Below, piece by piece: positions 1 through 18,833 of a stretch of 61,166 nt of DNA. Both the position numbers and the translations under genes were made by a program. Each line of letters starts with the position of its first letter. Position 1 is the first letter of the stretch. The notes beneath the pieces are model-generated. The model searched no databases, was not told where the DNA came from, and saw nothing but the letters and a program-made list of their open reading frames with translations. Source of the DNA: a virus (taxonomy: Duplodnaviria; Caudoviricetes); the IMG/VR virus record IMGVR_UViG_3300034161_000007, positions 1 through 61,166 of that record; one strand, written 5' to 3'.

Positions 1-127
1 CTTGAGCTTTTTATAGGCTTGCTGGCGCGACAGGCCACCGCCGCCCGAGGATGGGCCGCCGAGGTTTTCGCTATCGATCACCCGATAGAACGGCACATAG
101 AATTCATCGCTCCAGGTGGCGCGCTGC
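1..127. repeat. 127-bp exact duplication of 61040-61166 (circular-assembly overlap)
   Basis: cttgagctttttataggc...ggtggcgcgctgc is identical at both ends; 127 is a standard assembler k-mer; the reading frame of the giant gene runs through the junction. Confidence 0.95.
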
Positions 128-3100
128 TCCGGGGTGATGATGCCCGACTGCTCGGCAATGCCCAGCACGTCGTCGCGGTGCTGCTGGAACTCTTTCCACA
201 CTTGCTGATAGAGCAGGCTGCGGCTTTTGCCGTCGGCCAGTTTGCCGCCGCTGAACTTGATACCCGCCTCGATTTCAGCCGGGGTGAACAGGTTTTCACG
301 GCCTTCGCCGAGCAGGCGCTTGGAGCGGTTGGCCGCGATCCAGCCCATGAAGCGGGTCATTTCCGCCACGCTACCGAGCTTGTTCAGGGTGTCGCCCAGG
401 CCTTTGCTGTTGTCGTGCAGGTCAATGACCTTTTCCACCGGGTCAAGGTAGATGCGACCGTGATGCAGCAAAGCATCCACGGCGCCGCCTGCGGCCTGGC
501 TCATGCGCGCCAGCACCCACGAACTGGAAGCAATCGAGCCTTCCAGCGTGTCGGCGCCGTACAGGGCTTGGTCATTGCGCATCAGCGGCGCGTACCGGTC
601 GACCGCCGCCTGGCGAATGCGCAGACCGAGGTTGTCAGTCAGTTGGCGCCAGCGATCCGCCAGCCGTTGCGGCAGTTTCTGCGGGCCGATCTTGTCGCTG
701 AAGCTGGTGGCGTCGGCATTGTTCTTGATGTCGTCGAAGTGGTCCGACAGCTTGACGCTGTAACGAATAGGGCCGTCGCTGGCCTTGGGCTCGCGATACA
801 TCGACTCACTGATTTCAAAGTTCTTGTTGCCACCTTTGTTTTCGACAAAGCCGAAGCGCTTATAGAACTGATTCAGGCGGGCCTTGCTACCACCGAAGTC
901 ACCCGAAGGCGTCAATACGATGGTCTTGCCGTTGGCGTCTGCCCATTCAGCGATCCGCCCCATAACCTGTGTGCCTGTTCCGGCGCTGCGCTCAGGCACA
1001 ACGATGCGCGACAGGTTGATTTGATCACCCTTGCCCAGCAGGTCGAGCTTCAAGCCGGGGAACTCAGCTTTGAGCTGTGTGCTCAGGTCTTCAGCGGTCA
1101 TTTCAGCCGGTGCGCTGAACATGGTCCCGGCCGGGCCGAACAGCTCGCCACGCTTGGCCAGCGCCATCGATACCAGCGCATCCTTGGCCATGGCGCGCAG
1201 TTGCGCCGGGGTGACTTGGCCCAGTTGCTTGCCGTAGCGGCTGAACAGCCAGTGCTTGATGGCACCCACCAGATCGTCAACCCACTTGCGGAAGGCGGCC
1301 GGCAGCTGCGCGTGCTCTTCAATGGCGTAGGCGCCGAACTCTTCGGCGGTCATACCATCGGCAACGGCGCCTTGATCCTGCGCCTGTTGTACGCGCTCAC
1401 GGGCGCGATCAAACACTTCGCGAGCCTTGCCGGTGGATTGCTCGGCCTGGCGGTGCAAACCGTCCAGGCGCTTCATCAGCTGCGCCCAGCGCTGCGAGCC
1501 GACCAGCTGCTCGCCACCACTATGAAACATTTCATGCAGCAGCACGCCGTTGGCGTTGCCCGGGGTCAGGTTGGCCGCCACCAGATGCACGGTGCCATCG
1601 GGAGTAGTGACCGCTTGCATGCCACGCACCGGCGTCACGCCGTCCGGCAGCGATTGCACGTTGCCGTGAACCACGATGTGCCCGGCGTCGATCAGCTTCT
1701 TGACCACCGGGCCAAACGGGCCTTGGGTAATCGCGTCGCGCACTTCCTGGTGCGAAGCCGGCTCGCCGACTGGTGCCGCCACCGACAGGCGATTACCGTC
1801 GCCCAGGTATTTCGAGCGGATGAAGAAGCCGCCGTTTTTAGGGAAGGTGTACGGGTCGATTTCCTTGGCTTCATCCTTGGTCAGATCGGTGCGCACGATA
1901 CCGGTGATGGTTTTACCCTTGCCGGTGACGTGCTCGATCATGACCGGCTTCGGCTCGGGTTTGCTGCTCGGCGAGCGGTCGGGCAGGTCCAGGTGCTCGA
2001 TGCGGTCGAACAGTTCGCCAGTCGACTGGGCATTGCTCAGGTTGATCGTGCGCGCATGAATGTTCAGTGCGTCGTCCGGGTTGCTGTGTTTCTCCAGCAC
2101 GATGACCTGCGTGTTGACCGCCGTGCCGGCGCGCTCGAAGGTCGAAGCCGGCATGTCGAAGGTGGCCACGCGGTGCAGGCTTTTTGCTTCATCACTTTCC
2201 AGGAAGGCCGCCAGGCGCTTATCGGTCAGGCCGCCACGCGGGATCAAGGCGACGATCCGCCCGCCTTCGCGCAGGTGCTTGGCCGCCTTGGCGACGTGCT
2301 CGACGGCGGTCTTGCCGCCGTTGCCGTAAGGCGGGTTCATCACCACGGCGTCGTACTTGTTGGTCAGGTGCAGCGACTCGAAGGTGTCGTTGATGATCCG
2401 CGCGTTGCCGTTGGCCAGGGCCGCCCGCTGCGACAGGTCATAACTCGGCTCGACCATGGTCACGTTGGCCTGCGGCGGGAAGAACCGCGCAATGGCGCCG
2501 TGCCCGGCCGACGGTTCCAGTACGTCGTCACCCTTCTGGATGTTGGCCCACTCGGCCATCTTGAAGCCGACCGGTTCCGGGGTGGCAAAGTAGTCGGTGC
2601 CTTCGCGCTGGTCGCGGCGCTTGGTGTTCTTCTGCTGGGCGAAGTAGTAGGCCTTGGCCTTGGCGAACGGGCTCAGTGCCGAAGCCGCGCCCAGCTCACG
2701 ATCCAGTTCCTTGCCGCCCTTGCCATCCTCGGCGCTCGGGGCCAGGTCTTCGGCGCCGTTGTAGGCGTCGATGAAGGATTGCTTCAAGCCGCGGGCTTCA
2801 GTGCCCAGCGCCAGGTTTTCAGCGGTCGAGGCGCGCTCGGCGATCTTGCTGGCGAAGGCGCTGGCCTCCCAGGCCGTGCCGGTGGTCAGGTAACGGAATG
2901 CCGCATCACTGGCTTGCCCGGTGCGGTAGGTGCGGCCCTCGATCTGGATCGCCGCCACAGGCTTGCCTGGCATGCCTAGGTTGATCAGCACGCGCATGTG
3001 CTGGCCGGTGGTGTCGTGCAAGCTGACGCCTTCACGGCCGGCGTCCGACTGCAAGACGATCAAGTCCTTGCCGCTGGTGTCGTCGTTGAAGGTGTCGGCG

Positions 3101-6100
3101 TTGCTGCGGCGCTTGGCCTTGGGCACGGTGCCGTTGAAGAACAGCGCATCCGGGAAGGCCGCCGCCAAGGTCTCAATCGGCGAATACAGGCCGTTAAGGT
3201 CCATCTTCTTGAAGATGTCCGGGCGTGCGGCAAAGGCTTCGCGGGCCAGCGCCCGGGTATCCGCCTCGGTGATGCTGGCCAGTCCGGCGTTGAACGGATC
3301 GAAGCCACCGCCCTTGTTGTAGTCGTGGAACACCACCACTTTGCGGCCGAGCTTCAGGTGCGCCTTGATCAGCGGCACTACGGCTTTAGCCTTGATCGAC
3401 TCCAGCAAGTACATGCGCTTCTGGTAGTCGAAGGTCGACATCACCGCGTTGTACACTTCGCGGTACTTGCCGTCCTCATGCTCGCGCAGGAAGGCCAGGC
3501 CTTGGTCGATCTTCTGGCCCACGGCGTCATCGACCATCACAAACTTGCGGTCGTAGTCGTAAGGCACTTCCAGGCGGCGGCCCGACAGCGCGCCGACGTC
3601 CTTCAGGTGCTGGTTAAACCCTTGCTCCATCAGTTCGGAGTCAACCCCAGCTTCCGGCGCGGTCAACTTGTTGTAACGCATGCGGTAGCCGAAGTGCTGC
3701 ATGAAAAACTTCTCACGCGCATCACCGCTGTTGTAGGCCGAACCGGCCATTTCCGCCTTGTTGCTGAAGCGCTCGGCCGGATCGACGTAATCGAACAGGT
3801 AGCCCTCGGCGTAGTCCACGCTTTTGACGTAGGCGAATGGCGTGGCCGACAGGAACAGGGTTTTTGGCAGGTCTTGTTGCTTGGCCCAGCGCGCTTGCCA
3901 AGCCTTCTTGGCTGGCTCTTCGATGGCGGCCCAGGCTTCAGCAGCGTCGTCGCGGGCTTCGGTCAGGGCGTCCAAGTCCTTGGCCGAGTAGTTGGCCAGC
4001 TGCTCCTGCTCGGGCATGGCGGCCTGCGCTTGTTGCAGCGCTTGCCATTCCTTGTGGTTGCGCTCGCGCACCCACTGATAGAAGCCATCCGGGTGACCGG
4101 TCAAGCCTTGCAGCTTGGTCAGCGCGCCCGTGCCTTCACCCTTCTCGTTGCTCGACAGGTAATGCGCCTCATCGGCCACGACCTGATCCCAGTCACGCAG
4201 GGCCAGGCTATCGTTGGCGCCGAAGTTGGCATAGGTGGTGATGACCTGGCCGTCTTTGCCGTTGTCGGTGGTGCCGGTCAGTTGTTTGAGGTTGACGCCC
4301 AGCATCTTGGCGAACTTCACCCAGTCCGAGGCGATCTTGTCGCTCGGCACGATGACGATAGCGTTGGGCTTGCCGGCGTTGATCGAGCGCACTACGACAC
4401 CCATGCCGCTGGCGGTCTTGCCGGTGCCGGTGCCGTTGGTGAGCAGCATGCCATTGCCAACGGCGTAACGCTGCTCGGCCTTGAGCACGTCACCGCGCTG
4501 GGGCTCAAGCAGAAGGGGCAAGGCTTGATCAATGTTGGCTTGGTCGCCGCGTACCGTTGGGGTGCCAGCTGCTTTTTTCTGCGCGGCTAGACGTTGACCG
4601 AACTCGTCGGCATCAGTGGCAGGAGCAGTTTCAACAATGTGCTCTGCTCGCTGGTGCTCAACGGGTTTTCCTGCGTCGCTATCGCCACCGCTTCGGGCGG
4701 ATTCAGCACCTCCGGCATCGCCGAGCGTAGGTCTGAATGCCCCGTCTGGTTGATGTACGCGCTGATCGCCTGATTCTCGGCCAGTAGCGGCGCCATCAGT
4801 TGGTAGGCGTTGATCACGCTGTCCGTCTGCCCGGCCTTCGACATCGCTTGCGCCTGGCTCGCCAGTGCGTCGTCCAGCTGCGGCTGGCTCATCGGAAAGA
4901 GCAGCTGCATCGACGGGTTTTGCAGGGGTTGCGTCTGTGCGATTTGATTCCACACGCTCGCCGGGACTTGCTGCATTTACTGCGCTCCCTTGTTGCGGCG
5001 TTTCACTTCGCGCGCCAGGTGCTGGTCGCTGTCCGTCTGTGCCACGCGCGCCAGTACCTGCGTCATCAGGTTGTGCGTCTCCGAAGAGGCCTTGTTGCTG
5101 GCTGGCTTGGGCTTCTTGGCGGTCGAGTTTGTCATGCGTGCCTCGGAGTAAGTCGGCGCCGGTCACTTCCGGGTCGCCAAACAGGTTAGTGCCCGGCTGG
5201 GTTGCGCGGGCCAACTGAGTATAGGTCAGAAGTGCGTCAGCTACTGTAGCTCGGCTGCGCGCACGCGCCAAGCTGGCGCCGCGATAGAACACGCCAACCC
5301 AGTCTTTGGTCGCCTGATCCAGTTCACCAGAGAAAATATCGTTCTGGTTCACCAGCTCATAAACCGACTTGCCCTGTGCGCGCGCTTGGCGCACCAGGTT
5401 CACCGCTTCGATCAGGTTCGGCGTCACGTCGACGGCCTTGGAGATTTGCCCGTCGCGCGATTCCTGGCGCATCTGCGCCCATGGTCCGGCCGCATCGAGC
5501 AGCGCGCTGCCAATCGACTTAATGTCGCTGTCAGTGCTCTCGAACAAGTCATTGATCAGGCTCGGCTCATCGTAGGCGGCCGATAGCAGCGCAGCCTCGA
5601 TCCGGCGCCGGCCTTCCTGCGACAACATGCCGTCGCTGTCCATCAGGCTGCCGCGATCACTCTTGCTGGCCACGTCGCCAATGAAGGCACGGACGAACTC
5701 GCGATTCGCCGCGCCCGCCACGTCGCCACCGTTGAACAGGTGCAGGAGGTCGCCCACCTTCTTGGCATCGGCCACGGCGCGCTCGGTTGAGCTCAGTGCC
5801 AGGGTGGTGCGTTCGTTGGCTTCGGTGGTGTAGGCCTGAAGCTGTTCGGTGGTCATCGGCGTGACGCGCTCGCGCACCAGGATCGGCGAAGCCATGCCGG
5901 CCACGTCGTAACCTTGCGATTCAAGCCAGTCGCGGTACTTCACCGCCGATTGATTGTCGAGGGCGTAGGCCTGACGAATTGCCAGGGTTCGGCCGTTGCC
6001 GCTTTCCACCACACCTTCCGGCGAGACAATCGGGGCGCCGTCGGTGGCGCTGGCGCTGTCGCCGAGCAGGCGCGGGTTCAGGTTCTTGGCCATGCCATTG

Positions 6101-9100
6101 ATCTGATCCAGCGATGCCGAGCGCGAACGGTCGCGCGGTTGCAGTTCTTTCGGGTAGGCCGGGTTGACCGGGCCGTCGACGAAATTGGACGTGATCAGGG
6201 TGTTCTCTTCGACCACCTTGTGCCGCACCTGGAACTCGGTGCCGGCCGGGGTGCTTACGGTTTCCAGCTTGCCAACTACCGAGGATTTCTCGGTGGTTGC
6301 CTTGCCGCCGCGATCAACATAATCGCTCGCCTGTCGCGGGCTCCAGCCGTTCTTGGCTTCCTTGCCTTCAGTTGGGTGGAACATATGGGTGAACTGCTGG
6401 CCATCGTCGCGCACAGTGCCCGGCGATTCAGGGTAATACAGCCACTGCTCGCCATCATGCTGGATCGGCACGGCGCCGTTCGCCTTGACCTTGGCCAACC
6501 ATGTAGCGTGTGCGGTTGGCTCGGTTTGAACTGTGGCAATTTTTGCCTTAGTTGCCGGTTCAGCTGCTGGGTTGTCCAGCTTGGCCAGTTCAGCGCGCAC
6601 GGTGTCGGCGTTGTCCATGCCGTCGACCGAGTGGCCGGCATCTTCCATCATGTCGCGCGCACCGTTGAACCAGCTGCGCAGGTACGGGCGCACTTTTTCC
6701 AGTGGTTGGCCCAAGTCCTCGGCCATGGTCTTGGCGAAAGCGGCGAACTGACGCACGCCGGCCTCGATGTGGAACACCGCCAGCTCGGTGCCCATTGCCA
6801 GAATCTCGGGATCGATGCCGCTGTTCAGCTGAGAGCCGTTCAGTTTGGCCTTGAGTTTGGCGCGCAGTTCGGCCGCGCGGTCCTGGCTCACCAGCTTGTT
6901 GCTGGCGCCGTACTCGGCCGCCTTGGCCAACTCCTTGGCGGTTTCAGCGGCTGGCGTTGGCGCCTCCAACTTGGCCGGCTGCTCGGCCGTCAATGGCTTG
7001 GTAAATGGTCGCTGGGGTGGCGCGATTGGCGCATCGCCAAACAGGTACTCTTCGGCGCCGTCTTTGTCGGCCGTCTGCGGCTTGTCACGGCCAGCCTCAA
7101 ACTGGCGGCGCGCAAAGCCATCGCCGCGCGCTTCAGCCTCGGCAATGGCGTTATCCATCAGCCACTGGTCAACCGCCTTGAGGGTGGCTGTCGTTTTGCG
7201 CGGGGTGTCAGTTTTAACATTTGGGAACGGTGTAGTGTTCCGACCGCTGGCGGTCTTGACGACTTCGCCGGAGCCCATCTTGTCGCCTACTTTGCCCTGG
7301 CGCACATCCTTCTCGACCTTCTGATAGGTCACACCTTTGCGCTCGGCCACAGCAAGGTCGGCATACGACAGGCTGGTGCCGCTGTTGGAGTCGATGCGCT
7401 TAACGTGGACGTTGCCCTGGCTGTCGATGCTCTCAACGGTGTAGGTCTGACCGCCGCTGATATAGCCGACGTCGCCGGAGGCAACGAATTGCTCGCCTTC
7501 CTTGATCCCACCCATGCGCTCACGCGCCGCTTGACGCTTGGCTTCTGCGCGCGCCTTGGCTTTCTGTTGCGGGCTCAGTGGCTTCGATGCAGGTTCAGCG
7601 GCTTTTGATGCAGGTTCTGCCGCTGGCGTTGCAGTTTTCGGCACTTCTGATGCAGGTTTTACCGTTTCTGTTGCGGCACCCGATGCTTTCCACAGGTCGG
7701 CAATCTTGAAGGTGTGCATGCGATCCACCGACAGCTCGCCAGCCTTGGCAAAGGGAGGGCTGTCGGTGAATGTGCGACCTTCACGCATGCCGGCGAACAC
7801 GGCATTAATGTTTTTTGCACCCTCGCTGCGGCGCCACTTCACATAGTCGACGGCGGCCTGACGCGCGGCGTTCACGTCGGCGCGATCAATTCCGTCATGT
7901 TCAAGGGCCGGGTCGTCAACACCATACTTAGACAGGTCTGGAACACCTTCTGTTTCGGCCAGCATCTTGCTGTAATCGGCACCGCTGTCGGTAGCGACCT
8001 GTTGAACCTTGCTCAGAGTGTCGCGGGCCTTGGCGATACCCGGGCGCAACTCTTCGACCAGCGCCTTGACGGCCGGGTCGTCCTTGCCGCGCGCCTTGAA
8101 TGCAGCCTTCAAGCGTTGCTCAGCCTGGCTCAGTGTGTTCAGCGCGGTATGCAGTTCACCCTCTACTGCGGATGGCAGCTTGCGCCGTTCTGCGCGAACG
8201 TCCGGTTTGTCGGTCTTTTCCTTAGTCGGCTTGATCTTGCCCGTCTCATCGCCGGCCTTGATCGAGGCATTAACCTCGGCCAAGTGCTGCTGAATTGGAA
8301 CGGCTTCGTACTTTTCAGTATTGAGCGCGTCGACCTTCTTCTGGTCGAAGGTTTCCATGATAACTTCGCCGGACGCCTTGTCGCGGATAACCCAACTAGC
8401 GGTGCGCGACAGGCTGTTAGTCGGCTCATTCTTCGGCTTCGCTTCCTTGGCACCGTCGACGATCTGCACATTGCGAAGCTCGTCCTGTAGCGCGCGGTGG
8501 ATAGCGGGCTCATCCATGCCTTGCTCGCGCATGCCCGCCATTCTGGCCTCAAGCGCTTCATCTTTCTGTGTGCGCTCTTCCTTCGCGGCTGCGCGGTCCT
8601 TGGCTTCTTCCGTGTTGCGCAGCTGGTCAGCCACGGCTTTGCCTTTCTTGGCATCGATGGCTTTGCCGATGGCCGTGCGGCGCTTCATCAGCACAGAGAA
8701 GCCGTTACGGCTGTCCTTGCTGTTCTTTTCCAGCGGGTAATCCTTGATCTGTTGGGCGATGTCCTTCAAGGCAGCGCGCAGCTGCGGCTCGTCCAGGTCG
8801 TTAATGCCTTGCTCGGCTTCACGGTTCAGGCGGTCGCTCAGTAATTCGTGCTTGCGGGTTTCGCCAGCTGCGGCCGGCTCTTCCTTGGCGGCTGGCGCTT
8901 CAGGCTCGACCACGTCGGTCAGCGTCGGCACTTCTTCGGTCAGCGTTGGAATATCAACCCCGGGTTTCACCACGTCCGTCAGGGTCGGGATTTTGCCGAC
9001 TTTACCGGTGGTTGGAACAGATGGGGTCGCCTGCGCCGGTTGTGCCGCTGGTGCCGGTTCGGTGACTGGCGCATTGGCGCGTTCGAGCTGGACGCCATCG

Positions 9101-11220
9101 TCCTGGGTGAACTCATAGGCGTTGCCGTCATCAGCGAGCACGCGCGCGGTCCACTGGCCTTGGCCGTGATCCTCGTAATGTTCCAGGGTGCCGGCCATTT
9201 CGCCGTCGGAACTGCGCACAGTGACTGGTTCGCCGGCCGGCTCAGCGGCTGGAGCAGGAGCGGGCTCAGGCGCGACGTATTGCTGCGCGGCGCGGGTCAG
9301 CGGACCTGTGGGAGCGGGCGGTGCGGCGGCGGGCGCCGGTGCGGGCTCAGGCGCCACGGTTTCAGCGGCGGGAGCCGGCGCTTGCTGGGGCTCGCCTGTG
9401 GGAGCGGGCTCTGCTTGTGGCTGTGCTTGTGCGGCGGCAGCGGCGTCAGCTTCACGGTTGCGAGTAGGGATCGCATCGGCGGCCTTCTGCAAGCCATGCA
9501 CGCCAGCCTTGAGCGCCATACCCGCGCCCGCACCGGTAATCATCGCGTCGGCCAGGTTCTGCCGGGCCTGCGCCCACGTCATGTTCGGATCAATCGAACC
9601 TTTGTCCAGGCCGTCCTGGATGATCTGCGTTACGCCTTCCTGTACAGACTCGGCGGCGCCAGCCTTGAGCAGGCCTTTGAAGAAGTTTTGCCCTGGCTGG
9701 AGAATGACATGGATCGGCAAGCCTTCAGGGATCGCCTCGGCCATACCCTGCGCCAGCGCATAGCTGCCCGCATCCTGCGCGTTCAGACCGCCCGCGCGAC
9801 CTTTGTTGTAGCTTTGACCGGTCACCTGGCCGCCAATCAACGACATGCCTACGGCCGGGTTGCGCGTGATTGCCGATGCCGCCAGCGCCGGGATCATTTC
9901 CGCCGTCGAACTGATGATCATGCTGCCGTACTTGGCCAGCGGACCATCAGGACGCACCTCGATGGTGTCGAGCTTGGCGTCCTTCGCGGTCTTCTTCGCC
10001 CACTCGGTCACAGCACGCGGCTGCATGCCAATCAGTGCGCCGGCTTCGTCCAGCGACATCAGCGTGGTGGCATTCTTGCGGATGTAGTTAGCAATGTTCG
10101 CCTCGTCAGCCGGCTTGCCATTGCGCAGGGTCGGGGTCATCTGGCCATGGTCGTTCTGCACCATGATGATGTCGCCGTTGTCCTGCATGCGCTGGATGAT
10201 GCCGGAGCTGCCCGCGTTACCGACCAGGGTGGCGTTGTCGATGCTTTCACCACCCATGCGCACCAGACCGGCCACGGCGTCTTTCATGTGCGGGCCGAAG
10301 TTCTGCAACTGCTTGCTGGTGGCTTGGGTAAAGGTGTCTTCCGGACGCGTGTCGACCGGCGCCATGCCTTTCTGCACCAGGTCTTGGTTGGTCGGGGTCA
10401 GTGGCGACGGCGCCGGAGTGCTGTTGACCTTGTCCTCGACGCGCTGCTGGTTGTTCAGGGTCAGCGGCGACGGGGCTTGGTAAGCGCCTGTTTCCTGCTG
10501 CGCACGATCAAACGCACCCTTGCCACTGGCGATGTCGGCGCGCTCTTGGTCGCGCTGGGCGATGTCGGCCGGGTCGATCACCTTGTAGCGGCCGGGTTCC
10601 TTGGCGTCCATTTCCGCTTGGATCGCGGCTAGGTCATTGCCCGGGGCAGCCGGCGCGGCGGCCTTCTTGCCAGCCATCAGCTGGTCACCAATGATACTGG
10701 CCTTGGCCAATACCTCTTGGCCGTAGGCGTTGGTCTTCTCGCCCCACTGCTGGCGGTTGTCACCACCAAAGTGAGCCTTTACCGCGTCTTCCATGCTGTA
10801 ACCCTTGTCCAGGCGCTCGCGCAGCTGCTTGGCCGCGCCGGCAATCGCCTGCTCAGGGTTGAACGGATCGATACCCAAAGCCTTGGCGTTGGCGTCGAGG
10901 TTTTGCAGCATACCCTTGGCCTGGCCCCACTTGGTCTGCTCGCCCACGGCATTGGCGTTATAGCCCGATTCTTGCTGTGCCAACGCTGACACCACGTTCA
11001 GCGGCACGCCGTACTCGGCGGAATACTTCTCAAACAGGGGTTGAAGGTCAGGCGGTGGCAGTAGGCCTTTGCTCATGACAGTGGCGGCACTGGACGTCAG
11101 CGGGCCGGCGCTGGTACTGCGCGGCGGCAGGGTCTGAATATCGGGCGCCGGAGGCACAACGGGCGCGGTGGCAGTAGAGCCAGTCGCGGAGGGCGACTTG
11201 AGGAAAAGGTTTTCTGCCAC
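1..11220 (-). CDS. Giant DarB-like polyvalent internal virion protein, 5' part (continues across the junction to 59147; ~4,370 aa total)
   Basis: GTG at 11220 with GAGGA RBS; frame read open to base 1 and in frame with ORF 59147..61135. Motifs: SLT (AQQESGYNANA ~10970), ddrB/ParB-like (YPKELQPRDR, VESGNGRT ~5990-6160), SF2 helicase (NGTGTGKT ~4430, DEAH ~4165, QSDAGREGVSLHD ~3030), N6-MTase (DYFATP, EPSAGHG, NPPY ~2330), HEMFH (~1530), GNAT-like (GTGTQVM...RLNQFYKRFGF ~850-1000). Confidence 0.9.
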   Translation of the reverse strand, partial: MAENLFLKSPSATGSTATAPVVPPAPDIQTLPPRSTSAGPLTSSAATVMSKGLLPPPDLQPLFEKYSAEYGVPLNVVSALAQQESGYNANAVGEQTKWGQAKGMLQNLDANAKALGIDPFNPEQAIAGAAKQLRERLDKGYSMEDAVKAHFGGDNRQQWGEKTNAYGQEVLAKASIIGDQLMAGKKAAAPAAPGNDLAAIQAEMDAKEPGRYKVIDPADIAQRDQERADIASGKGAFDRAQQETGAYQAPSPLTLNNQQRVEDKVNSTPAPSPLTPTNQDLVQKGMAPVDTRPEDTFTQATSKQLQNFGPHMKDAVAGLVRMGGESIDNATLVGNAGSSGIIQRMQDNGDIIMVQNDHGQMTPTLRNGKPADEANIANYIRKNATTLMSLDEAGALIGMQPRAVTEWAKKTAKDAKLDTIEVRPDGPLAKYGSMIISSTAEMIPALAASAITRNPAVGMSLIGGQVTGQSYNKGRAGGLNAQDAGSYALAQGMAEAIPEGLPIHVILQPGQNFFKGLLKAGAAESVQEGVTQIIQDGLDKGSIDPNMTWAQARQNLADAMITGAGAGMALKAGVHGLQKAADAIPTRNREADAAAAAQAQPQAEPAPTGEPQQAPAPAAETVAPEPAPAPAAAPPAPTGPLTRAAQQYVAPEPAPAPAAEPAGEPVTVRSSDGEMAGTLEHYEDHGQGQWTARVLADDGNAYEFTQDDGVQLERANAPVTEPAPAAQPAQATPSVPTTGKVGKIPTLTDVVKPGVDIPTLTEEVPTLTDVVEPEAPAAKEEPAAAGETRKHELLSDRLNREAEQGINDLDEPQLRAALKDIAQQIKDYPLEKNSKDSRNGFSVLMKRRTAIGKAIDAKKGKAVADQLRNTEEAKDRAAAKEERTQKDEALEARMAGMREQGMDEPAIHRALQDELRNVQIVDGAKEAKPKNEPTNSLSRTASWVIRDKASGEVIMETFDQKKVDALNTEKYEAVPIQQHLAEVNASIKAGDETGKIKPTKEKTDKPDVRAERRKLPSAVEGELHTALNTLSQAEQRLKAAFKARGKDDPAVKALVEELRPGIAKARDTLSKVQQVATDSGADYSKMLAETEGVPDLSKYGVDDPALEHDGIDRADVNAARQAAVDYVKWRRSEGAKNINAVFAGMREGRTFTDSPPFAKAGELSVDRMHTFKIADLWKASGAATETVKPASEVPKTATPAAEPASKAAEPASKPLSPQQKAKARAEAKRQAARERMGGIKEGEQFVASGDVGYISGGQTYTVESIDSQGNVHVKRIDSNSGTSLSYADLAVAERKGVTYQKVEKDVRQGKVGDKMGSGEVVKTASGRNTTPFPNVKTDTPRKTTATLKAVDQWLMDNAIAEAEARGDGFARRQFEAGRDKPQTADKDGAEEYLFGDAPIAPPQRPFTKPLTAEQPAKLEAPTPAAETAKELAKAAEYGASNKLVSQDRAAELRAKLKAKLNGSQLNSGIDPEILAMGTELAVFHIEAGVRQFAAFAKTMAEDLGQPLEKVRPYLRSWFNGARDMMEDAGHSVDGMDNADTVRAELAKLDNPAAEPATKAKIATVQTEPTAHATWLAKVKANGAVPIQHDGEQWLYYPESPGTVRDDGQQFTHMFHPTEGKEAKNGWSPRQASDYVDRGGKATTEKSSVVGKLETVSTPAGTEFQVRHKVVEENTLITSNFVDGPVNPAYPKELQPRDRSRSASLDQINGMAKNLNPRLLGDSASATDGAPIVSPEGVVESGNGRTLAIRQAYALDNQSAVKYRDWLESQGYDVAGMASPILVRERVTPMTTEQLQAYTTEANERTTLALSSTERAVADAKKVGDLLHLFNGGDVAGAANREFVRAFIGDVASKSDRGSLMDSDGMLSQEGRRRIEAALLSAAYDEPSLINDLFESTDSDIKSIGSALLDAAGPWAQMRQESRDGQISKAVDVTPNLIEAVNLVRQARAQGKSVYELVNQNDIFSGELDQATKDWVGVFYRGASLARARSRATVADALLTYTQLARATQPGTNLFGDPEVTGADLLRGTHDKLDRQEAQASQQQGLFGDAQPDDAGTGARGTDGQRPAPGARSETPQQGSAVNAASPGERVESNRTDATPAKPVDAAALSDEPAAAGRRTGEPGASDVEGRADGQRDQRLPTDGAATGRESGDQRVHQPDGAFRPTLGDAGGAESARSGGDSDAGKPVEHQRAEHIVETAPATDADEFGQRLAAQKKAAGTPTVRGDQANIDQALPLLLEPQRGDVLKAEQRYAVGNGMLLTNGTGTGKTASGMGVVVRSINAGKPNAIVIVPSDKIASDWVKFAKMLGVNLKQLTGTTDNGKDGQVITTYANFGANDSLALRDWDQVVADEAHYLSSNEKGEGTGALTKLQGLTGHPDGFYQWVRERNHKEWQALQQAQAAMPEQEQLANYSAKDLDALTEARDDAAEAWAAIEEPAKKAWQARWAKQQDLPKTLFLSATPFAYVKSVDYAEGYLFDYVDPAERFSNKAEMAGSAYNSGDAREKFFMQHFGYRMRYNKLTAPEAGVDSELMEQGFNQHLKDVGALSGRRLEVPYDYDRKFVMVDDAVGQKIDQGLAFLREHEDGKYREVYNAVMSTFDYQKRMYLLESIKAKAVVPLIKAHLKLGRKVVVFHDYNKGGGFDPFNAGLASITEADTRALAREAFAARPDIFKKMDLNGLYSPIETLAAAFPDALFFNGTVPKAKRRSNADTFNDDTSGKDLIVLQSDAGREGVSLHDTTGQHMRVLINLGMPGKPVAAIQIEGRTYRTGQASDAAFRYLTTGTAWEASAFASKIAERASTAENLALGTEARGLKQSFIDAYNGAEDLAPSAEDGKGGKELDRELGAASALSPFAKAKAYYFAQQKNTKRRDQREGTDYFATPEPVGFKMAEWANIQKGDDVLEPSAGHGAIARFFPPQANVTMVEPSYDLSQRAALANGNARIINDTFESLHLTNKYDAVVMNPPYGNGGKTAVEHVAKAAKHLREGGRIVALIPRGGLTDKRLAAFLESDEAKSLHRVATFDMPASTFERAGTAVNTQVIVLEKHSNPDDALNIHARTINLSNAQSTGELFDRIEHLDLPDRSPSSKPEPKPVMIEHVTGKGKTITGIVRTDLTKDEAKEIDPYTFPKNGGFFIRSKYLGDGNRLSVAAPVGEPASHQEVRDAITQGPFGPVVKKLIDAGHIVVHGNVQSLPDGVTPVRGMQAVTTPDGTVHLVAANLTPGNANGVLLHEMFHSGGEQLVGSQRWAQLMKRLDGLHRQAEQSTGKAREVFDRARERVQQAQDQGAVADGMTAEEFGAYAIEEHAQLPAAFRKWVDDLVGAIKHWLFSRYGKQLGQVTPAQLRAMAKDALVSMALAKRGELFGPAGTMFSAPAEMTAEDLSTQLKAEFPGLKLDLLGKGDQINLSRIVVPERSAGTGTQVMGRIAEWADANGKTIVLTPSGDFGGSKARLNQFYKRFGFVENKGGNKNFEISESMYREPKASDGPIRYSVKLSDHFDDIKNNADATSFSDKIGPQKLPQRLADRWRQLTDNLGLRIRQAAVDRYAPLMRNDQALYGADTLEGSIASSSWVLARMSQAAGGAVDALLHHGRIYLDPVEKVIDLHDNSKGLGDTLNKLGSVAEMTRFMGWIAANRSKRLLGEGRENLFTPAEIEAGIKFSGGKLADGKSRSLLYQQVWKEFQQHRDDVLGIAEQSGIITPEQRATWSDEFYVPFYRVIDSENLGGPSSGGGGLSRQQAYKKLK
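4587..4976 (-). CDS. Putative overprinted 129-aa gene in the +1 frame of the giant gene
   Basis: ATG preceded by AAGGGAG RBS; protein-like helical composition (MQQVPASVWNQIAQTQ...), while the giant-gene frame here is R/G/D-rich low-complexity linker. Confidence 0.6.
   Translation of the reverse strand: MQQVPASVWNQIAQTQPLQNPSMQLLFPMSQPQLDDALASQAQAMSKAGQTDSVINAYQLMAPLLAENQAISAYINQTGHSDLRSAMPEVLNPPEAVAIATQENPLSTSEQSTLLKLLLPLMPTSSVNV
4977..5135 (-). CDS. Putative overprinted 52-aa gene (MTNSTAKKPKPASNK...RRNKGAQ) directly upstream of 4587..4976
   Basis: GAGG 5 nt before ATG; its TAA stop abuts the next ATG (TAAATG); same +1 frame. Confidence 0.5.
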   Translation of the reverse strand: MTNSTAKKPKPASNKASSETHNLMTQVLARVAQTDSDQHLAREVKRRNKGAQ

Positions 11221-11238
11221 GGGTGAAGTCCTCGGCGC

Positions 11239-11280
11239 GGTTGGATAATCGAAACGTATAGTTCGATTCTAGCGCCAACC
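11239..11280 (-). promoter_or_regulatory. Candidate late-promoter motif and inverted repeat upstream of the giant gene
   Basis: Minus-strand TTCGATTATCCAACC resembles TTCGATAATCAAACC upstream of the capsid gene and terS; lies in an AATCGAA...TTCGATT inverted repeat. Confidence 0.45.
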
Positions 11281-11300
11281 GGCGACCGAGGGTAGCGGGC

Positions 11301-12587
11301 TTACTGGTAAGGGACCATTTGCCCGGTTTTGGTATCGAAGATCATCGGTGTTTTGCTGGCCGGTGCCGCCGAGGGTTGTGCGCCAGGTAGACCGCCCGAC
11401 ATTGGATTGCCTGGCGCAGCGGGCGCAGCACTCGGGCCGCCGTTGATCAGCTGCATGTCCTGCTCGATCTGCGCGGCCTGTTGCTGCGGGGTCTTGCGGG
11501 TAAAGTTGAAGTCGCTCAGGCGCGCCTGAAACAGCATGCGCCGGGTTTCCTGTGGGTCGGCGGGCTTCTTGTACTGGCCGATGCCGAGGATTTGCGGCAA
11601 CGCATCTTTGATGAACTTCTCGTCGTAGCCGGCTTTCTTCAGCACTTCCACCTTGTTGTTGAGCGCGGCCCCGGCGTTTTGCACGTCGAGCTGCTTGCCG
11701 GTGGCCTGCAAATTTAGCTGGTTGCCGGCCTTCTGGTCTTCCAGCTTGCTGGCAACCTGCCCCTGTACGACGGCCTTGTTGTTGTCGCGGAGCATGTCGT
11801 TGTTGGTCTTCGTTACTTCCAATCCGGCCTTGGCCTTCGCCGCGTTCTGCGCATCCACTCGCGCCATGGTGGTCTTGAAGGCGTTGGCTGGCTCCAGCAA
11901 GCCGATACCCGCCTGCACCATATCGTCCTGGCCATGGATGGTCTGTACGAACTGCTCGCCGGTTTCCTTGTTTTTCATCTTCAGGGTCAGGCCGGTGGTG
12001 TTGCCGTCCTTGTCCTTCACCAGGTCGTAACCTTCGGCGTGCAGGCCATCGTCGTAATAACCCGGGGTGTTGTAAGCCTTGACCATATGGTCGGCGTAGC
12101 CCTTAAAGTCGCCAACCTGTGCCGAGCGCAGCGCCTGCGTCCAGCTCTTCATACCGGCCTGAGCCTGCTTGTCCTGCGCCCACTTGTCCCAGGCATCCGC
12201 GCCAGCCTGATTGCCTTGAGAAATGTAGGTTTCTTTAATCTTCGGCACCACGTCGCGCAGGTAGAAGTCTTCCGGCAAAGGCGCGTTCTTCTTGGCGGCC
12301 TTGGCTTGATCGTCGGCACTGGCATAGCTGTTGCCGCGCGTGTCGTCATAAGTCGGCATGGTCATGGTGTTGTCGGCATTAGCCTTGCTGCCCACTTGCG
12401 AGTTGGCGGCGATGTCATCGCTGCTTGCCTGCTTGGAGTCGGCCAAGCCTTTGGCCATGACATTTTTGACGTCCTGCTTATCGCCGAAGTCTTGGAGCTT
12501 CTGGTAGGCGCCGATCATCTGCGTGCCGAGGCCGATACCGTCACTGATCCCCCGAATCAAGCCGCCAGCGGCATAGGGATTACTCAT
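11301..12587 (-). CDS. Probable internal virion / DNA-ejection protein (428 aa)
   Basis: Position before the giant gene; N-terminal Gly-rich amphipathic segment (AAGGLIRGISDGIGLG); A/Q/K-rich helical body. Confidence 0.6.
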   Translation of the reverse strand: MSNPYAAGGLIRGISDGIGLGTQMIGAYQKLQDFGDKQDVKNVMAKGLADSKQASSDDIAANSQVGSKANADNTMTMPTYDDTRGNSYASADDQAKAAKKNAPLPEDFYLRDVVPKIKETYISQGNQAGADAWDKWAQDKQAQAGMKSWTQALRSAQVGDFKGYADHMVKAYNTPGYYDDGLHAEGYDLVKDKDGNTTGLTLKMKNKETGEQFVQTIHGQDDMVQAGIGLLEPANAFKTTMARVDAQNAAKAKAGLEVTKTNNDMLRDNNKAVVQGQVASKLEDQKAGNQLNLQATGKQLDVQNAGAALNNKVEVLKKAGYDEKFIKDALPQILGIGQYKKPADPQETRRMLFQARLSDFNFTRKTPQQQAAQIEQDMQLINGGPSAAPAAPGNPMSGGLPGAQPSAAPASKTPMIFDTKTGQMVPYQ

Positions 12588-13957
12588 TGGGACACCTCCA
12601 GATTGAATAGGGCGATGTGCGGCATTACCGCATCGCGGATCACGTCGAGTTTACCCTGATAGACCTGGTAGGCCTCGGGGTGTTTGTGCTTCAGCCAGGT
12701 GGCACGACCTTCTGACCAGTAGGCCGAGCAGGTCAGGCAATCCGGCGAGGCGGCCAGGTGCTCGTAATAACCTGGAACAAAGGCCTCACTGTTGCGCAGG
12801 TAGTCGAACACCTCAGCGTCCACCCAGTGCTCCAGAGGAAACAGCAGCTCGACACCATCCAGCAGAGCGCCGGAGCGCAGCGGCGACTTCATCGTGTCCG
12901 CGCTCTTCTGTCCGCGCACGATCAAGGTAATGCCGTCGTCCAGCATGCGCTGGTGCATCGGCGCCATCAGCGCGTGGTAGCAGCAGTTGAAACGGTCCTG
13001 CAAGGCCACACCGCCACCATAGGCTGTGCGCCCGAAGGCGGTGGCCGTGGTTGGCAGAAGGTCAGACGGCAAGCCGTGCGCGGCAATCTGTTCATTGACG
13101 CGCCCGCTAATCTCAACAAAGTTCGGCACCAGCGCGCGCACCTGGTCAACCACCGCCAGCACTTCCGGCACCGGGTCGCCGGTATTGGTCCAGTACACGG
13201 TCATATATGGCCAGAACGCCTTTAGCAGAAACAGCGCCGCTAATGAATCCTTGCCGCCACTGAATTGAAAGGCGATGCGGTCGTGGCGATCCATCGCCGA
13301 CGCCATCTGATCATCGAGCGTTTGCTTGTGGAACTGGGCGATGTAGGTCATGGCCTCGGGCAGCGCCTGCTCGAAATCATCGAACGCGCCGGCAAAATGC
13401 TGCATGTCTCCGCGCGTGAGAATGGTGCGTGCCTGGGCAAAACCGTGGCGCTCGATCACCTCGCCCCAGGCATCGGCTGGCATGAAGGTCGCGTACAGCT
13501 CGGGAAGTTCTCGGTACTCGGTAATCGCCAGGTCACAGACGAACAGCTGGCCGCCTGGCTTGAGCAGACGCCGCGCCTCGCTCAAGGCCTGATTGATCGG
13601 CATCTGGCACAGAGCGCTGTTGAACATCACCACGTCGGCGCTGGCATCCGGCAAGCCGCTGCGGGTGAAGTCGACGCGATGCAAGGCGAAGGCCTCGCCG
13701 TCGGGCGCATGCTTCAGCTGGTACTCGCTGACATTAACCAGGTCAAAGGTCAGGTCAGGGCGCTCGGCGTGCATCAGCCTGGCCACCTCGCCCACGCCAC
13801 AGCCGGCGTCGACGATGTGCGCGCCGGGTGCCGGGTTGATCAGCTTCAGCAGGTAGGCGACGTGCGCCGCCTGGCTGTCACCGATAAACGCGGTTTGCAT
13901 CACGCGCAAGCCTTTGGCTAAAGCTAAGTCGGTGGCGGTGTTAATGGCATCAATCAA
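12584..13957 (-). CDS. Fusion of class I SAM methyltransferase and PAPS-reductase-family (PP-loop) domain
   Basis: N-half VDAGCGVG, ADVVMF, LLKPGGQL; C-half FSGGKDS, WTNTGD, NCC, IVRGQK, PLEHW, DCLTC. Confidence 0.9.
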   Translation of the reverse strand: MIDAINTATDLALAKGLRVMQTAFIGDSQAAHVAYLLKLINPAPGAHIVDAGCGVGEVARLMHAERPDLTFDLVNVSEYQLKHAPDGEAFALHRVDFTRSGLPDASADVVMFNSALCQMPINQALSEARRLLKPGGQLFVCDLAITEYRELPELYATFMPADAWGEVIERHGFAQARTILTRGDMQHFAGAFDDFEQALPEAMTYIAQFHKQTLDDQMASAMDRHDRIAFQFSGGKDSLAALFLLKAFWPYMTVYWTNTGDPVPEVLAVVDQVRALVPNFVEISGRVNEQIAAHGLPSDLLPTTATAFGRTAYGGGVALQDRFNCCYHALMAPMHQRMLDDGITLIVRGQKSADTMKSPLRSGALLDGVELLFPLEHWVDAEVFDYLRNSEAFVPGYYEHLAASPDCLTCSAYWSEGRATWLKHKHPEAYQVYQGKLDVIRDAVMPHIALFNLEVSQ

Positions 13958-13971
13958 TTGGCGGACCTCAT

Positions 13972-14919
13972 TTAGAAAGCGACGGCGGCATAAGCCATGA
14001 TAGCGGCAGTGCCTACGCCAGCAACAGCCTGGGTATTGGCCGCGCCCGCTTGCTGGTCGCCCTGTTGCACGGCGATGTTCTGCTGGCGTTGACCGGTAAG
14101 GGTGCTGGCTTGGCCGCCATAGCCTTGCTGAGCCCCCTGCATGCCTTGGGCCATGATGTTGGTGTTGGCCCGCGAACTGGCATCTGCCGCTAGCGAGTTG
14201 TTCACGGCCGAGTTACCCGACTGCGTACCCAGGCTGACCTGTTGTGCGGCGGTTGCGGTGCTGCCTCGGCCGAAGTTGGCCACGCCTTCACGCAGAGCCA
14301 TGCCAGTGGCTTTGACCTGCTCGCGGGCGCCGTTCTGTGCACCGGCCGAAGCCAGGGCGGTCGACAGATCATTGGCGCGATCAACCCCCGCAAAGCGACC
14401 GCTCGTTGGGCTGATGCCCATGCTCGCCATTTGCCGGCTGTTCTGCTGCTGCGCCTGGCTGGCGTTATTCATCACGTCGGCTTTGGCGTTGGCAGCGGCG
14501 GCGGCTTGCGCTTCCGGCGAGTCATAGTTCAGGGCATCGCTGACCATCCGGTCTTCAATGGGCTTGAACAGCGTGTTGTAGCGGTCCCACTGGTCATCAC
14601 TGCGCGTACTGGCTTGGCGCATGTCAGACAGTTGCTGGCTGGTAACCTCGTTGTTCAGGTTGTCCGTAACGCCTTGGCGGACCTGGCTGTCTGCATAGGC
14701 TGTCTTCGAGAAGTCCAGCCAGTCGGCGCCGGTCTTGGCCTGCATCTTCGCCGCTTCGCCGACTTGCGGGTCAGCGTCCGAGCCACCACCACCGCCCTTG
14801 CCGAAACATACGGTGCGACCAATCGCGAGCACCGCCAAGTGCCGATCCAGCTTAGATGGCCGCTGGTGCAGGTTGCCCGGCTCCAGAGCGGCCGGGGTCC
14901 AAAAATCTCGCGTCATCAT
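13972..14919 (-). CDS. Internal virion / pilot-like protein with N-terminal leader, GKGGGGGS motif and hydrophobic C-terminus
   Basis: ATG at 14919 overlaps the GNAT stop, GGAG RBS; A/Q/G-rich; ends AVAGVGTAAIMAYAAVAF. Confidence 0.65.
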   Translation of the reverse strand: MMTRDFWTPAALEPGNLHQRPSKLDRHLAVLAIGRTVCFGKGGGGGSDADPQVGEAAKMQAKTGADWLDFSKTAYADSQVRQGVTDNLNNEVTSQQLSDMRQASTRSDDQWDRYNTLFKPIEDRMVSDALNYDSPEAQAAAAANAKADVMNNASQAQQQNSRQMASMGISPTSGRFAGVDRANDLSTALASAGAQNGAREQVKATGMALREGVANFGRGSTATAAQQVSLGTQSGNSAVNNSLAADASSRANTNIMAQGMQGAQQGYGGQASTLTGQRQQNIAVQQGDQQAGAANTQAVAGVGTAAIMAYAAVAF

Positions 14920-15344
14920 TGGCGATACTCCGGGGGAATAAAACGGCACTCTCGTCGGAGCATGCCGCGAATCTGAATGTCATCGTCAGGCATCGCTTCC
15001 GGGCAAAGCCCCTCAAGCTTGAAGCCCAGGTGTTCGTTAAAGCGGATCGCCTCGGTGTTCTTGGCCGGGATCAGCGCAGTGACACGGCGCATTTTCAAAT
15101 CCATGAACGGATAACCGAAGGCCATCTTCAGCACGTCGCGACTCAACCAATGGCCATCGCCACGGCTGGCAACATGCATGGAGCAGTCGACCTCGGAAAA
15201 GGTGTCCCACACCACCACCGCGCGCAGCTGGCCGGCGCTCATCACGCCGAAGGCCTTGGCGTCCTCTCGAAAGCAACGCAGGCCAATGCACTCGGCGGCC
15301 CAGCGCAGCAGTGCGGGTTGATCGTCATAAGCCAGCTCGGACAT
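14916..15344 (-). CDS. GNAT-family (RimJ/RimL-like) N-acyltransferase of the virion module
   Basis: MRRVTALIPAKNTEAIRFNEHLGFKLEG, a GNAT C-terminal motif. Confidence 0.85.
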   Translation of the reverse strand: MSELAYDDQPALLRWAAECIGLRCFREDAKAFGVMSAGQLRAVVVWDTFSEVDCSMHVASRGDGHWLSRDVLKMAFGYPFMDLKMRRVTALIPAKNTEAIRFNEHLGFKLEGLCPEAMPDDDIQIRGMLRRECRFIPPEYRQ

Positions 15345-15391
15345 GTCGTTGTTCCGGTTTTAGAACCATTGGCGCCAGTATAGAACCACTG

Positions 15392-15589
15392 CTAACGCAA
15401 GGCGATGCGCAGTGCGTTGATCGCGGCAAACAGCGCCGCAATGTCTTTGGTGTTGTCGCCGGACGGTGCGACGTTAAGGCTGTCCACCAGGGCTTTCACC
15501 TTACCTAGCCTGGCCGCCGCCTGGCCCGGATCACCCCGGTCACCATTCAGCACTTCCAGCTTTTGCTTGTCAGCAGCGGTCATTTCCAT
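15392..15589 (-). CDS. Small virion-associated protein (65 aa)
   Basis: Tightly packed ORF after the tail gene with GAGG RBS. Confidence 0.7.
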   Translation of the reverse strand: MEMTAADKQKLEVLNGDRGDPGQAAARLGKVKALVDSLNVAPSGDNTKDIAALFAAINALRIALR

Positions 15590-15590
15590 A

Positions 15591-17342: not shown

Positions 17343-17372
17343 GGTGCCCGCCTTATGTCCGGCCGTGACCGA

Positions 17373-17780
17373 TCAAGTAATCACCCACAATTGAGTTTGA
17401 CGAGCGCCAGCCAAGGCCAGTGCTTCGGTCAACTCAAGGGCGCCGACCTGGATCACGCGGTTATCCGCAAGCACCCAGGTGGTCGTCTCGATAGCTGGCT
17501 TGCTTTGCAGGCCGAGAATCGCCCGCGCCATGCGGCCCTGGCTGATTTCATCGCCGTCGAAGGTATGGCCCGCTGCCGTAGTGACCGTAATTGCCGCCAC
17601 GGCGCGCTCGCGCTCGGCCTTCAATTCCTCATAAGTGTGCTCGGGCGTCACAGGAGGATTGAGGTGCGCCTGCACTTCCTCGCTCGTCATCGGGATCAAG
17701 TCCGGCAGAATAAAATCATCTTGCGAGCCGTCCTGTTCATAGGCGAATACTTCACCGGTAAGCGACTTGTAGTATTTCAT
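17373..17780 (-). CDS. Tail fibre assembly chaperone, DUF4376-like
   Basis: Follows the fibre gene; FDGDEISQGRM and WVLADN motifs. Confidence 0.7.
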   Translation of the reverse strand: MKYYKSLTGEVFAYEQDGSQDDFILPDLIPMTSEEVQAHLNPPVTPEHTYEELKAERERAVAAITVTTAAGHTFDGDEISQGRMARAILGLQSKPAIETTTWVLADNRVIQVGALELTEALALAGARQTQLWVIT

Positions 17781-18556: not shown

Positions 18557-18557
18557 A

Positions 18558-18833
18558 TCAGCACTCCACGACGCGAAGGTTAAAGGTGACTTCTTTGATC
18601 CGCCCTTGGGCGGTGGTCGCGGTCACGGTGATTAGGTACGAGTTACCCGCCAGGCCGGCACTTAACCAGACTTTGGCCACGGCGCCGGACAGGCTCACGC
18701 TGATCACCGTCAAATCTGGCGAGTCAGCGGTGGCCGTGGCGTCGGTAAGGGTATCGCCCGCCGACAGCCATTTCTCAAAGCTGACGTCATAGTCCAGCGT
18801 GTCGTCAGGGCGCTTACGCATGGTTCCAAGCAT
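18558..18833 (-). CDS. Fibre-tail adaptor-like small Ig-fold protein
   Basis: KRPDDTLDYDVSF...VWLSAG...GRIKE pattern; context. Confidence 0.65.
   Translation of the reverse strand: MLGTMRKRPDDTLDYDVSFEKWLSAGDTLTDATATADSPDLTVISVSLSGAVAKVWLSAGLAGNSYLITVTATTAQGRIKEVTFNLRVVEC

Follow-up and report, generated by a model that had tools for sequence, protein, structure and literature searches.

A gene annotated as cysH or as 3′-phosphoadenosine 5′-phosphosulfate (PAPS) reductase is carried by Lessievirus and related podophages, examples being Bcep22 gp73, JC1 gp65, CSP3 orf41 and the 'cysH' gene of Ralstonia phages, and published accounts, such as those of JC1 and CSP3, report this gene family as a metabolic or moron gene. 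Here, we analyze a relative of this gene in IMG/VR record IMGVR_UViG_3300034161_000007, a complete virus whose 61,166 bp are bounded by direct terminal repeats (the whole of this stretch is referred to as the window, and all positions are counted in it). The window is a complete Bcep22-like podophage, in which a domain of the PAPS-reductase fold (hereafter, PAPS-like) is encoded in a single open reading frame (ORF) together with an N-terminal class I S-adenosylmethionine (SAM) methyltransferase. We propose, with a probability of about one half, that this fusion is a maturation enzyme that activates and methylates the C-terminus of the gp70-like virion protein encoded directly upstream, the main evidence being that the presence of the PAPS-like gene in other viruses follows the type of C-terminal tail carried by that virion protein.

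The C-terminal domain of the fusion is orthologous to the stand-alone phage proteins. It matches 43 phage records at 50-53% identity, namely Bcep22 gp73 (53.4% over residues 222-455) and 42 more, with Burkholderia, Ralstonia and a small number of further hosts. As in the window, the PAPS-like gene of Bcep22-like phages lies after a gp70-like gene and before gp74-like and DarB-like genes, and the upstream protein has the same type of tail (GAGIMAF in Bcep22 gp70). Unlike the window, the cultured phages encode the PAPS-like domain only, in about 240 residues: the matches extend over approximately residues 216-456, none of the 43 records covers the methyltransferase half, and none spans 80% of the query. 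An earlier model-made note on the window (the sequence-only reading) had mentioned stand-alone versions in Bcep22-like phages, and the 43 records bear this out. Annotations of the stand-alone gene exist for cultured phages, and public databases already contain the fusion under automatically assigned names. Our literature search found no paper that describes the fusion or gives the gene a role linked to a virion protein.

The PAPS-like gene follows the tail type of the upstream virion protein

We compared 81 viral loci, comprising the window and 80 IMG/VR loci with a relative of the C-terminal domain, whose PAPS-like proteins are 32-100% identical. The gene directly before the enzyme, or before its methyltransferase, encodes a Gln/Asn/Ala-rich protein of approximately 240-430 residues, the stop codon of which usually lies 1 or 4 nucleotides inside the enzyme start. 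In 78 of the 81 loci this protein was found, by inspection, to end in a hydrophobic tail rich in Gly, Ala and Met, with F, Y, L, M, I, V, A or W as the last residue; in the remaining three (L013, L021 and L046) the script had chosen a different or doubtful ORF. Among prophages in bacterial genomes, 37 of 39 loci show the same type of tail, as does Bcep22 gp70, which is annotated as virion-associated and ends ...GTIAGAGIMAF. The PAPS-like gene is therefore a deeply conserved member of a virion/ejection-protein cassette, and the sequence-only reading, which had taken its location to be meaningful, is upheld by this conserved place across viral and prophage loci.

The association was also analyzed starting from the virion protein. 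IMG/VR was scanned with a degenerate DNA pattern for the N-terminal motif MGK..PPxPDY, whatever follows it, which returned at least 120 stretches; the matches listed held 98 distinct complete proteins, and 85 of these had at least 800 nucleotides of downstream DNA. A tail was called hydrophobic when its last 12 residues were all drawn from AGMILVFYWST. Among these 85 proteins from the matches listed, a PAPS-like gene was found downstream of 31 proteins with a hydrophobic tail and 2 with another ending, and there was no such gene downstream of 5 proteins with a hydrophobic tail and 47 with another ending (raw Fisher test, p ~1e-15). Both gene-bearing exceptions contain one Gln, located at -11 or -12. 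As a control for relatedness, we used a tree of the upstream protein body without its last 60 residues, on which 13 independent pairs could be placed on well-supported branches: approximately 9.7 changed in the same way, 0 in the opposite way, and 3.3 were unchanged (median p 0.002).

The endings of the gene-less proteins point to a C-terminus that seems to be an exchangeable module. A '(V/M)(N/D)Y...' motif closes more than half of them (29/52), including one that is also positive for the hydrophobic-tail rule; some phage records annotate this ending as a Peptidase_S74 domain, as in the homologue from Rhizobium phage RHph_Y25. Proteins without a PAPS-like gene mostly carry a '...GYKMVNYGxL' module at the C-terminus (L089, L115, L133, L145, L150 and others), and other gene-less endings are Gly-rich tails with a charged last residue.

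A GNAT homologue is encoded upstream on the same strand at 62 of the 81 viral loci. It was also found upstream of all 81 MGK..PPxPDY proteins that had at least 1.5 kb of upstream DNA, a set that was chosen by its N-terminal motif and so is not an independent test. The position of the GNAT gene next to a Met-Gly-Lys start suggests N-terminal acylation of the gp70-like protein, and the upstream GNAT probably modifies the N-terminus of this same protein. Many relatives begin with Met-Gly-Lys...PPxPDYxGAA; in the window and in Bcep22 an N-terminal extension of approximately 40-60 residues precedes the PPxPDY motif, so that the motif (GKGGGGGSDADPQVGEAAK) lies within the protein.

The PAPS-like domain belongs to a distinct enzyme family

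The C-terminal half of the fusion matches PAPS_reduct (PF01507) at residues 228-395 (E 3.1e-7; score 31 bits, cut-off 22.5) and carries the PHROG label phrog_424. An AlphaFold2 model of this domain alone had a mean predicted local distance difference test (pLDDT) score of 97.3, and its nearest folds in the pdb set of Foldseek were the adenosine 5′-phosphosulfate (APS) reductase 2goy and the CysH structures 2o8v, 6vpu and 1sur (template-modeling [TM] score 0.55-0.61), followed by TtuA, QueC, LarE and GMP synthetase. The likeness to APS reductase/CysH (2goy, 7lhr, 1sur and 6vpu) extends to an aligned DTG..PET nucleotide region and to the CC...CxxC cysteines. None of the latter (C325/C326, C407 and C410) varies among 50 fused and 58 stand-alone homologues, and all four align to the CC and CxxC of chain 7lhr, the M. 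tuberculosis APS reductase, in which these cysteines serve as [4Fe-4S] ligands.

The family label, the best structural matches and the alignable cysteines all favor the reading published for JC1 and CSP3, in which the gene would be an ordinary auxiliary metabolic gene for an APS/PAPS reductase (CysH) that boosts sulfate assimilation by the host. We nevertheless regard this as very improbable, and it sits poorly with a gene that is fused to a methyltransferase and embedded in a late structural operon. Sulfonucleotide reductases depend on a catalytic C-terminal cysteine in an ECG[LI]H-type tail. The ECG[LI]H motif is absent from the fusion, in which no Cys follows C410 and the chain ends in a long helix, and there is no fifth conserved Cys in any of the 50 fused or 58 stand-alone homologues. 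Its PP-loop is canonical rather than of the reductase form: SGGKDS aligns to a degenerate SSSFG in the CysH structures, and S233, G234, G235, D237 and S238 are invariant in 50 homologues. NCBIfam scores for CysH/APS reductase were far under the cut-off (PRK02090, 20.4 bits against 154), and no dedicated APS-reductase or cysH TIGR model was among the 25 NCBIfam families shown. On this conclusion the sequence-only reading, which had argued against sulfur-assimilation metabolism from the fusion and its location, and our analysis agree.

Because the PP-loop is canonical, the C-terminal Cys motif is missing, the CysH scores fall below threshold and the CC...CxxC cysteines are kept, and because the DndC and SspD PADLOC profiles gave no match at E<=1, the domain is, as judged from its sequence, a distinct family of the ATP-pyrophosphatase type within the PAPS-reductase fold, and is probably an Fe-S protein. 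The metabolic 'cysH/PAPS reductase' readings of the gene family are probably wrong, since the family is an enzyme of this ATP-pyrophosphatase, putatively Fe-S type that is tied to a virion protein.

The methyltransferase domain and the question of a nucleic-acid target

The N-terminal half matches Methyltransf_11 at residues 49-140 (E 1.7e-12; score 48.2 bits, cut-off 21.2), and D50, G52, G54, G56 and D108 are invariant in 50 homologues. Its closest folds by Foldseek are TleD (E 1.9e-13), AtmM, RebM, ArsM and PMT, which are small-molecule C-, O-, N- and As-methyltransferases, and its best partial NCBIfam matches include BioC and trans-aconitate methyltransferase, both of which are carboxyl methylases. 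The domain is thus an intact class I SAM methyltransferase of a type that acts mostly on small molecules and on carboxyl, N or O groups. The two Pfam families of the fusion are both above cut-off, far beyond chance, and the motifs that the sequence-only reading had listed were all found: DAGCGVG from residue 50, SGGKDS from residue 233, the Cys pair at 325-326 and the CxxC (CLTC) at 407-410. A search of cultured phages with the methyltransferase domain returned two weak, unrelated records at 24-27% identity and no relative, and a protein-cluster search yielded nothing but unnamed clusters of class I methyltransferases from viruses and bacteria. In class I methyltransferases the SAM ribose is usually bound by an acidic residue that closes strand beta-2; at this position (residue 75, window 13733-13735) the fusion has Asn, and N75 is invariant in 50 of 50 sequences.

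A second explanation for the gene is that it encodes a nucleic-acid modification or anti-defense enzyme, either through DndC/SspD/BrxP-like activation or as a counter to a host phosphorothioate system, with a methyl mark placed on DNA or RNA; its place beside the DarB-like antirestriction gene, with which the cassette ends, would then reflect shared protection of incoming DNA. We consider this rather unlikely. The DndC, SspD and BrxP proteins share with the fusion the PAPS-reductase superfamily, a canonical PP-loop, conserved cysteines and an expected ATP pyrophosphatase chemistry. The profile comparison separates them, since DndC and SspD gave no match, as noted above, and BrxP scored only 15.6 bits in the stretch that holds the PP-loop (residues 221-275); moreover, the fusion is about half their size. 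No partner gene of the Dnd, Ssp or BREX systems (DndA/D/E, SspB/C) lies next to the fusion, the part of the window that was scanned for them. On the methyltransferase side, residues 3-149 match the PADLOC profile mad2 of the methylation-associated defense system (E 2e-9), which is probably generic class I similarity. The nearest folds are small-molecule enzymes, and the fusion has no motif IV of N6A, N4C or C5 DNA methyltransferases ([DNS]PP[YFW]), no PC[QK] including PCQ, no ENV, and no DNA-binding domain by Pfam, in line with the earlier remark that typical DNA-methylase motifs are missing.

The literature offers a parallel to a nucleic-acid role. Vibrio phage 44E38.1 p0018 (10.1101/2021.05.05.442762) is also a phage protein that joins a PAPS-family domain to a methyltransferase, and it is encoded in a two-gene region that gave resistance to host Dnd; in p0018, which we compared by its published description, the order is PAPS and then a Dam N6-adenine methylase, as opposed to the N-terminal Methyltransf_11 domain of the fusion, in which the DNA-methylase motif is lacking. 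A 2026 paper lists phage PAPS reductases as candidate anti-defense genes. However, the gene analyzed here has a fixed place after one virion gene, over a range of 32-100% identity, and its presence follows the tail type of that gene's product, neither of which a free-standing anti-defense gene would have to show. In addition, according to the JC1 report, the gp70 homologue gp64 was detected in virions, whereas neither the PAPS-like gp65 nor the acetyltransferase gp63 was. This weak negative evidence indicates that the enzyme is probably not injected, and fits enzymes that act at the time of assembly. The sequence-only reading had named a virion protein or packaged DNA as the target; the first of these gains support from the way in which the PAPS-like gene tracks the upstream tail type, and the second gains none, since DNA-methylase motifs, a DNA-binding domain and a DndC/SspD match are all missing.

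Recurrent pairing of the two domains

Both the methyltransferase family and PF01507 were present in 115 of 120 homologues of the fusion (the best 120 of 228 at E<=0.001), which were 36-85% identical to it. Many of these homologues are encoded on contigs of approximately 60-65 kb from uncultured material, and the fusion also occurs in bacterial genomes of the Comamonadaceae (Variovorax, Polaromonas, Rhodoferax, Acidovorax and others) and of Caballeronia. An exhaustive search with the C-terminal domain gave 589 cluster representatives at E<=0.001, and the architecture was counted in 151 proteins, comprising 148 newly listed representatives, P0032, P0089 and the window protein. The PAPS-like domain stood alone in 112 of the 151, followed a methyltransferase in 23 and preceded one in 3, and had another N-terminal extension in 10 and another C-terminal extension in 3. 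The methyltransferase of the reverse-order proteins P0146 and P0157 is of the same family (37-39% identity), its distinctive N-terminal helix included. At some viral loci the methyltransferase is a separate gene, either directly before the PAPS-like gene (L015, L017, L020, L024, L026 and L056) or directly after it (L005), with overlapping stops and starts. On a FastTree tree of 148 domains, the fused state was scattered, requiring 16 changes, of which at least 8 are forced by well-supported branches (support was weak, 61 of 145 inner branches being unresolved).

The methyltransferase is thus a recurrent, facultative partner of the PAPS-like enzyme. That the two domains are fused in both orders and split as adjacent genes indicates that they work together, so the functional pairing of methyltransferase and PP-loop domain proposed from the sequence is supported by the architecture survey. 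On the other hand, a methyltransferase is present at only 14 of the 81 viral loci, which implies that in most phages, among them Bcep22, the PP-loop enzyme does without this partner.

The last residue of the upstream protein was also compared with the presence of the methyltransferase. An Ile/Val ending was found in raw counts at 7 of 14 viral loci with a methyltransferase versus 1 of 63 without, and at 13 of 14 prophage loci with it versus 5 of 25 without (20/28 versus 6/88 for both sets together). The phylogenetically controlled form of this comparison was underpowered, with only 5 independent pairs (p >= 0.5), and the clade of the window ends in Phe.

In four of the ten proteins with another N-terminal extension (P0125, P0130, P0132 and P0189), a CxxCxxCC domain (PF03692) replaces the class I methyltransferase. 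A paper on FliB, a flagellin lysine methylase, calls the Fe-S cysteine motif of that enzyme 'similar' to PF03692; no match to FliB was returned by NCBIfam when the CxxCxxCC extension was considered as a methylase of this type.

A proposed maturation reaction for the gp70-like protein

If the fusion acts on the gp70-like protein, the PP-loop domain would adenylate a carboxylate at the expense of ATP, the most plausible one being that at the C-terminus of the gp70-like tail, and a nucleophile would then displace AMP from the adenylated tail. The methyltransferase, where present, would methylate the same end or its product. Speculatively, the product would be a neutral C-terminus (a thiocarboxylate, S-methyl thioester, methyl ester or amide), with which the tail could insert into a membrane or become locked in the virion. 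The predicted Fe-S site of the fusion lies where the cluster of APS reductase adjoins the AMP-anhydride. In sulfonucleotide reductases this site admits a mobile C-terminal peptide, the place of which could be taken here by the substrate tail.

Precedent for such chemistry is provided by TsrC, ScdTA and PesC, for which ATP-dependent adenylation of peptide C-terminal carboxylates followed by substitution has been described. The analogy is one of mechanism only, because these enzymes, per the preprint, belong to PF00733 and have no Fe-S site, and the fusion gave no PF00733 match at E<=1. LarE and TtuA/TtcA are among the structural matches of the C-terminal domain at a weaker level than CysH (TM score 0.43-0.48). 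LarE and TtuA/TtcA, likewise PP-loop enzymes, activate a substrate by adenylation and insert sulfur into it, some of them via a [4Fe-4S] cluster, and PP-loop sulfur insertases use three cluster cysteines, which leaves one iron free.

Several points weigh against the proposed maturation role. The modification itself is a prediction from sequence and gene context. All four cluster cysteines are conserved in the fusion family, which differs in this from the sulfur insertases; a sulfur-insertion step thus has no specific support. Known members of the PAPS-reductase fold family that have a canonical PP-loop, namely DndC, SspD and BrxP, act on DNA. The methyltransferase is confined to 14 of 81 viral loci and to 26 of 151 proteins of the domain family. 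The tail is of variable length, from approximately 8 to 13 residues after a conserved G-x-S-L, and therefore offers no fixed register. Five hydrophobic tails (L085, L130, L157, L168 and L187) have no PAPS-like gene within 1.5 kb. Finally, the DNA that encodes the tail abuts the enzyme gene, and co-transfer of both as one cassette could produce the association without a functional link. A complex prediction with the fusion, ATP, a 4Fe-4S cluster and the last 40 residues of the upstream protein scored 0.00 in two runs without controls and counts neither way. Three of the five gene-less loci (L085, L130 and L157) are related phages with tails ...IAAMAM and ...MAAMFM; the next ORFs of L157 are unrelated and encode 137 and 460 residues.

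The five gene-less tails and the possible co-transfer of adjacent DNA would also suit an enzyme with another substrate, such as the gp74-like or DarB-like protein, a constituent of the host envelope or a small molecule synthesized during infection, the link to the tail then being genetic linkage only. The overlap of the enzyme stop with the downstream virion gene and the small-molecule enzymes among the nearest folds of the methyltransferase agree with such a substrate. We judge this explanation unlikely, because the downstream gene family varies by lineage while the upstream tail is nearly constant in both the viral and the prophage loci, and because there were no small-molecule biosynthetic partner genes among the recurrent clusters of neighboring ORFs. 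The maturation of the gp70-like protein is our preferred reading. As for the two-step activation and methylation that the sequence-only reading had proposed, the pairing of the domains stands, and the steps themselves remain proposals, with a methyltransferase at a minority of the viral loci.

A broader and more tentative possibility is that both ends of this ejection or internal virion protein are capped in many podophages: GNAT would acylate the Met-Gly-Lys end, and the PP-loop/Fe-S enzyme, together with a methyltransferase in some lineages, would neutralize the tail carboxylate as a thioester, ester or amide, so that the protein could insert itself into the host envelope. Should the proposed target prove right, the gene would represent virion maturation by enzyme-made C-terminal modification of a structural protein. 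Such a modification of a phage structural protein was not found in the literature, in which no search was aimed directly at this question. If the capping of both ends is true, it would constitute a novel class of C-terminal protein modification, dependent on both ATP and Fe-S, and many phage 'cysH' auxiliary metabolic genes would be misnamed. The idea is directly testable in cultured Bcep22-like phages, which carry the stand-alone enzyme and the same tail, and the methyltransferase, fused in both orders and split, offers a natural series for dissecting the chemistry.

Gene cassette and features of the window

The order of genes annotated in Bcep22 is gp67, gp68, gp69 (acyl-CoA N-acyltransferase), gp70 (virion-associated), gp73, gp74 (virion-associated) and gp75 (DarB-like), and this order is reproduced by the window genes through their PHROG matches (Table 1). 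The genes on both sides of the fusion match PHROG 'virion structural protein' families and are the positional counterparts of Bcep22 gp70 and gp74, so that the fusion does sit between two virion genes, as had been noted from the sequence. Translation of the fusion starts at TTG (13957-13955), the position at which homologues open with M-I-E/D-A-I, and its TGA stop shares ATGA with the ATG of the next gene. The likely real start of the gp70-like gene is ATG 14919, which is preceded by GGAG and overlaps the GNAT stop, again as ATGA.

Table 1. Positions of the fusion gene, its domains and motifs, and the neighboring genes in the window.
Feature	Position	Strand	Basis and remarks
Methyltransferase/PAPS-reductase-fold fusion, 457 aa	12584..13957	-	ORF, Pfam, PHROG; AlphaFold2 pLDDT 94.4, predicted TM score (pTM) 0.91
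Class I SAM methyltransferase domain, Methyltransf_11 type, aa 1-215	13313..13957	-	Pfam, Foldseek, homologue alignment
SAM-binding motif I DAGCGVG, aa 50-56	13790..13810	-	Motif scan, homologue alignment
PAPS-reductase-fold PP-loop domain, aa 216-457, Bcep22 gp73 orthologue	12587..13312	-	53% identity to gp73
Canonical PP-loop SGGKDS, aa 233-238	13244..13261	-	Motif scan, alignment
Cys-Cys dyad, aa 325-326, predicted Fe-S ligands	12980..12985	-	Invariant; aligns to CC of 7lhr
CxxC, C407-L-T-C410, predicted Fe-S ligands	12728..12739	-	Invariant; aligns to CxxC of 7lhr
GAGG ribosome-binding site, 8 nucleotides before the TTG start	13966..13969	-	Sequence
Hydrophobic C-terminal tail of the gp70-like protein, ending ...VGTAAIMAYAAVAF	13975..14016	-	Type of ending found together with the PAPS-like gene; no Lys or Arg
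Upstream virion protein, Bcep22 gp70-like, proposed substrate	13972..14949	-	phrog_8003, 1.2e-80
GNAT acyl-CoA N-acyltransferase, Bcep22 gp69-like, conserved cassette member	14916..15344	-	phrog_4470, 4.7e-46
Downstream virion protein, Bcep22 gp74-like	11301..12587	-	phrog_9667, 5.7e-72; start overlaps the fusion stop
5′ part of giant DarB-like gene, last in cassette	1..11220	-	Continues at 59147-61165 across the record ends

A megablast search of window positions 9000-19000 against cultured phages gave no match. The two parts of the DarB-like ORF (1-11220 and 59147-61165, minus strand) sum to approximately 13.2 kb, or about 4,400 residues, if the repeat-bounded genome is circularly permuted, and this combined length agrees with the DarB-like proteins of approximately 4,500 residues in Bcep22 and JC1. 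Elsewhere in the window, three tRNA genes, Asn-GTT, Ser-GCT and Asp-GTC, are clustered at 32713-32961 on the minus strand.

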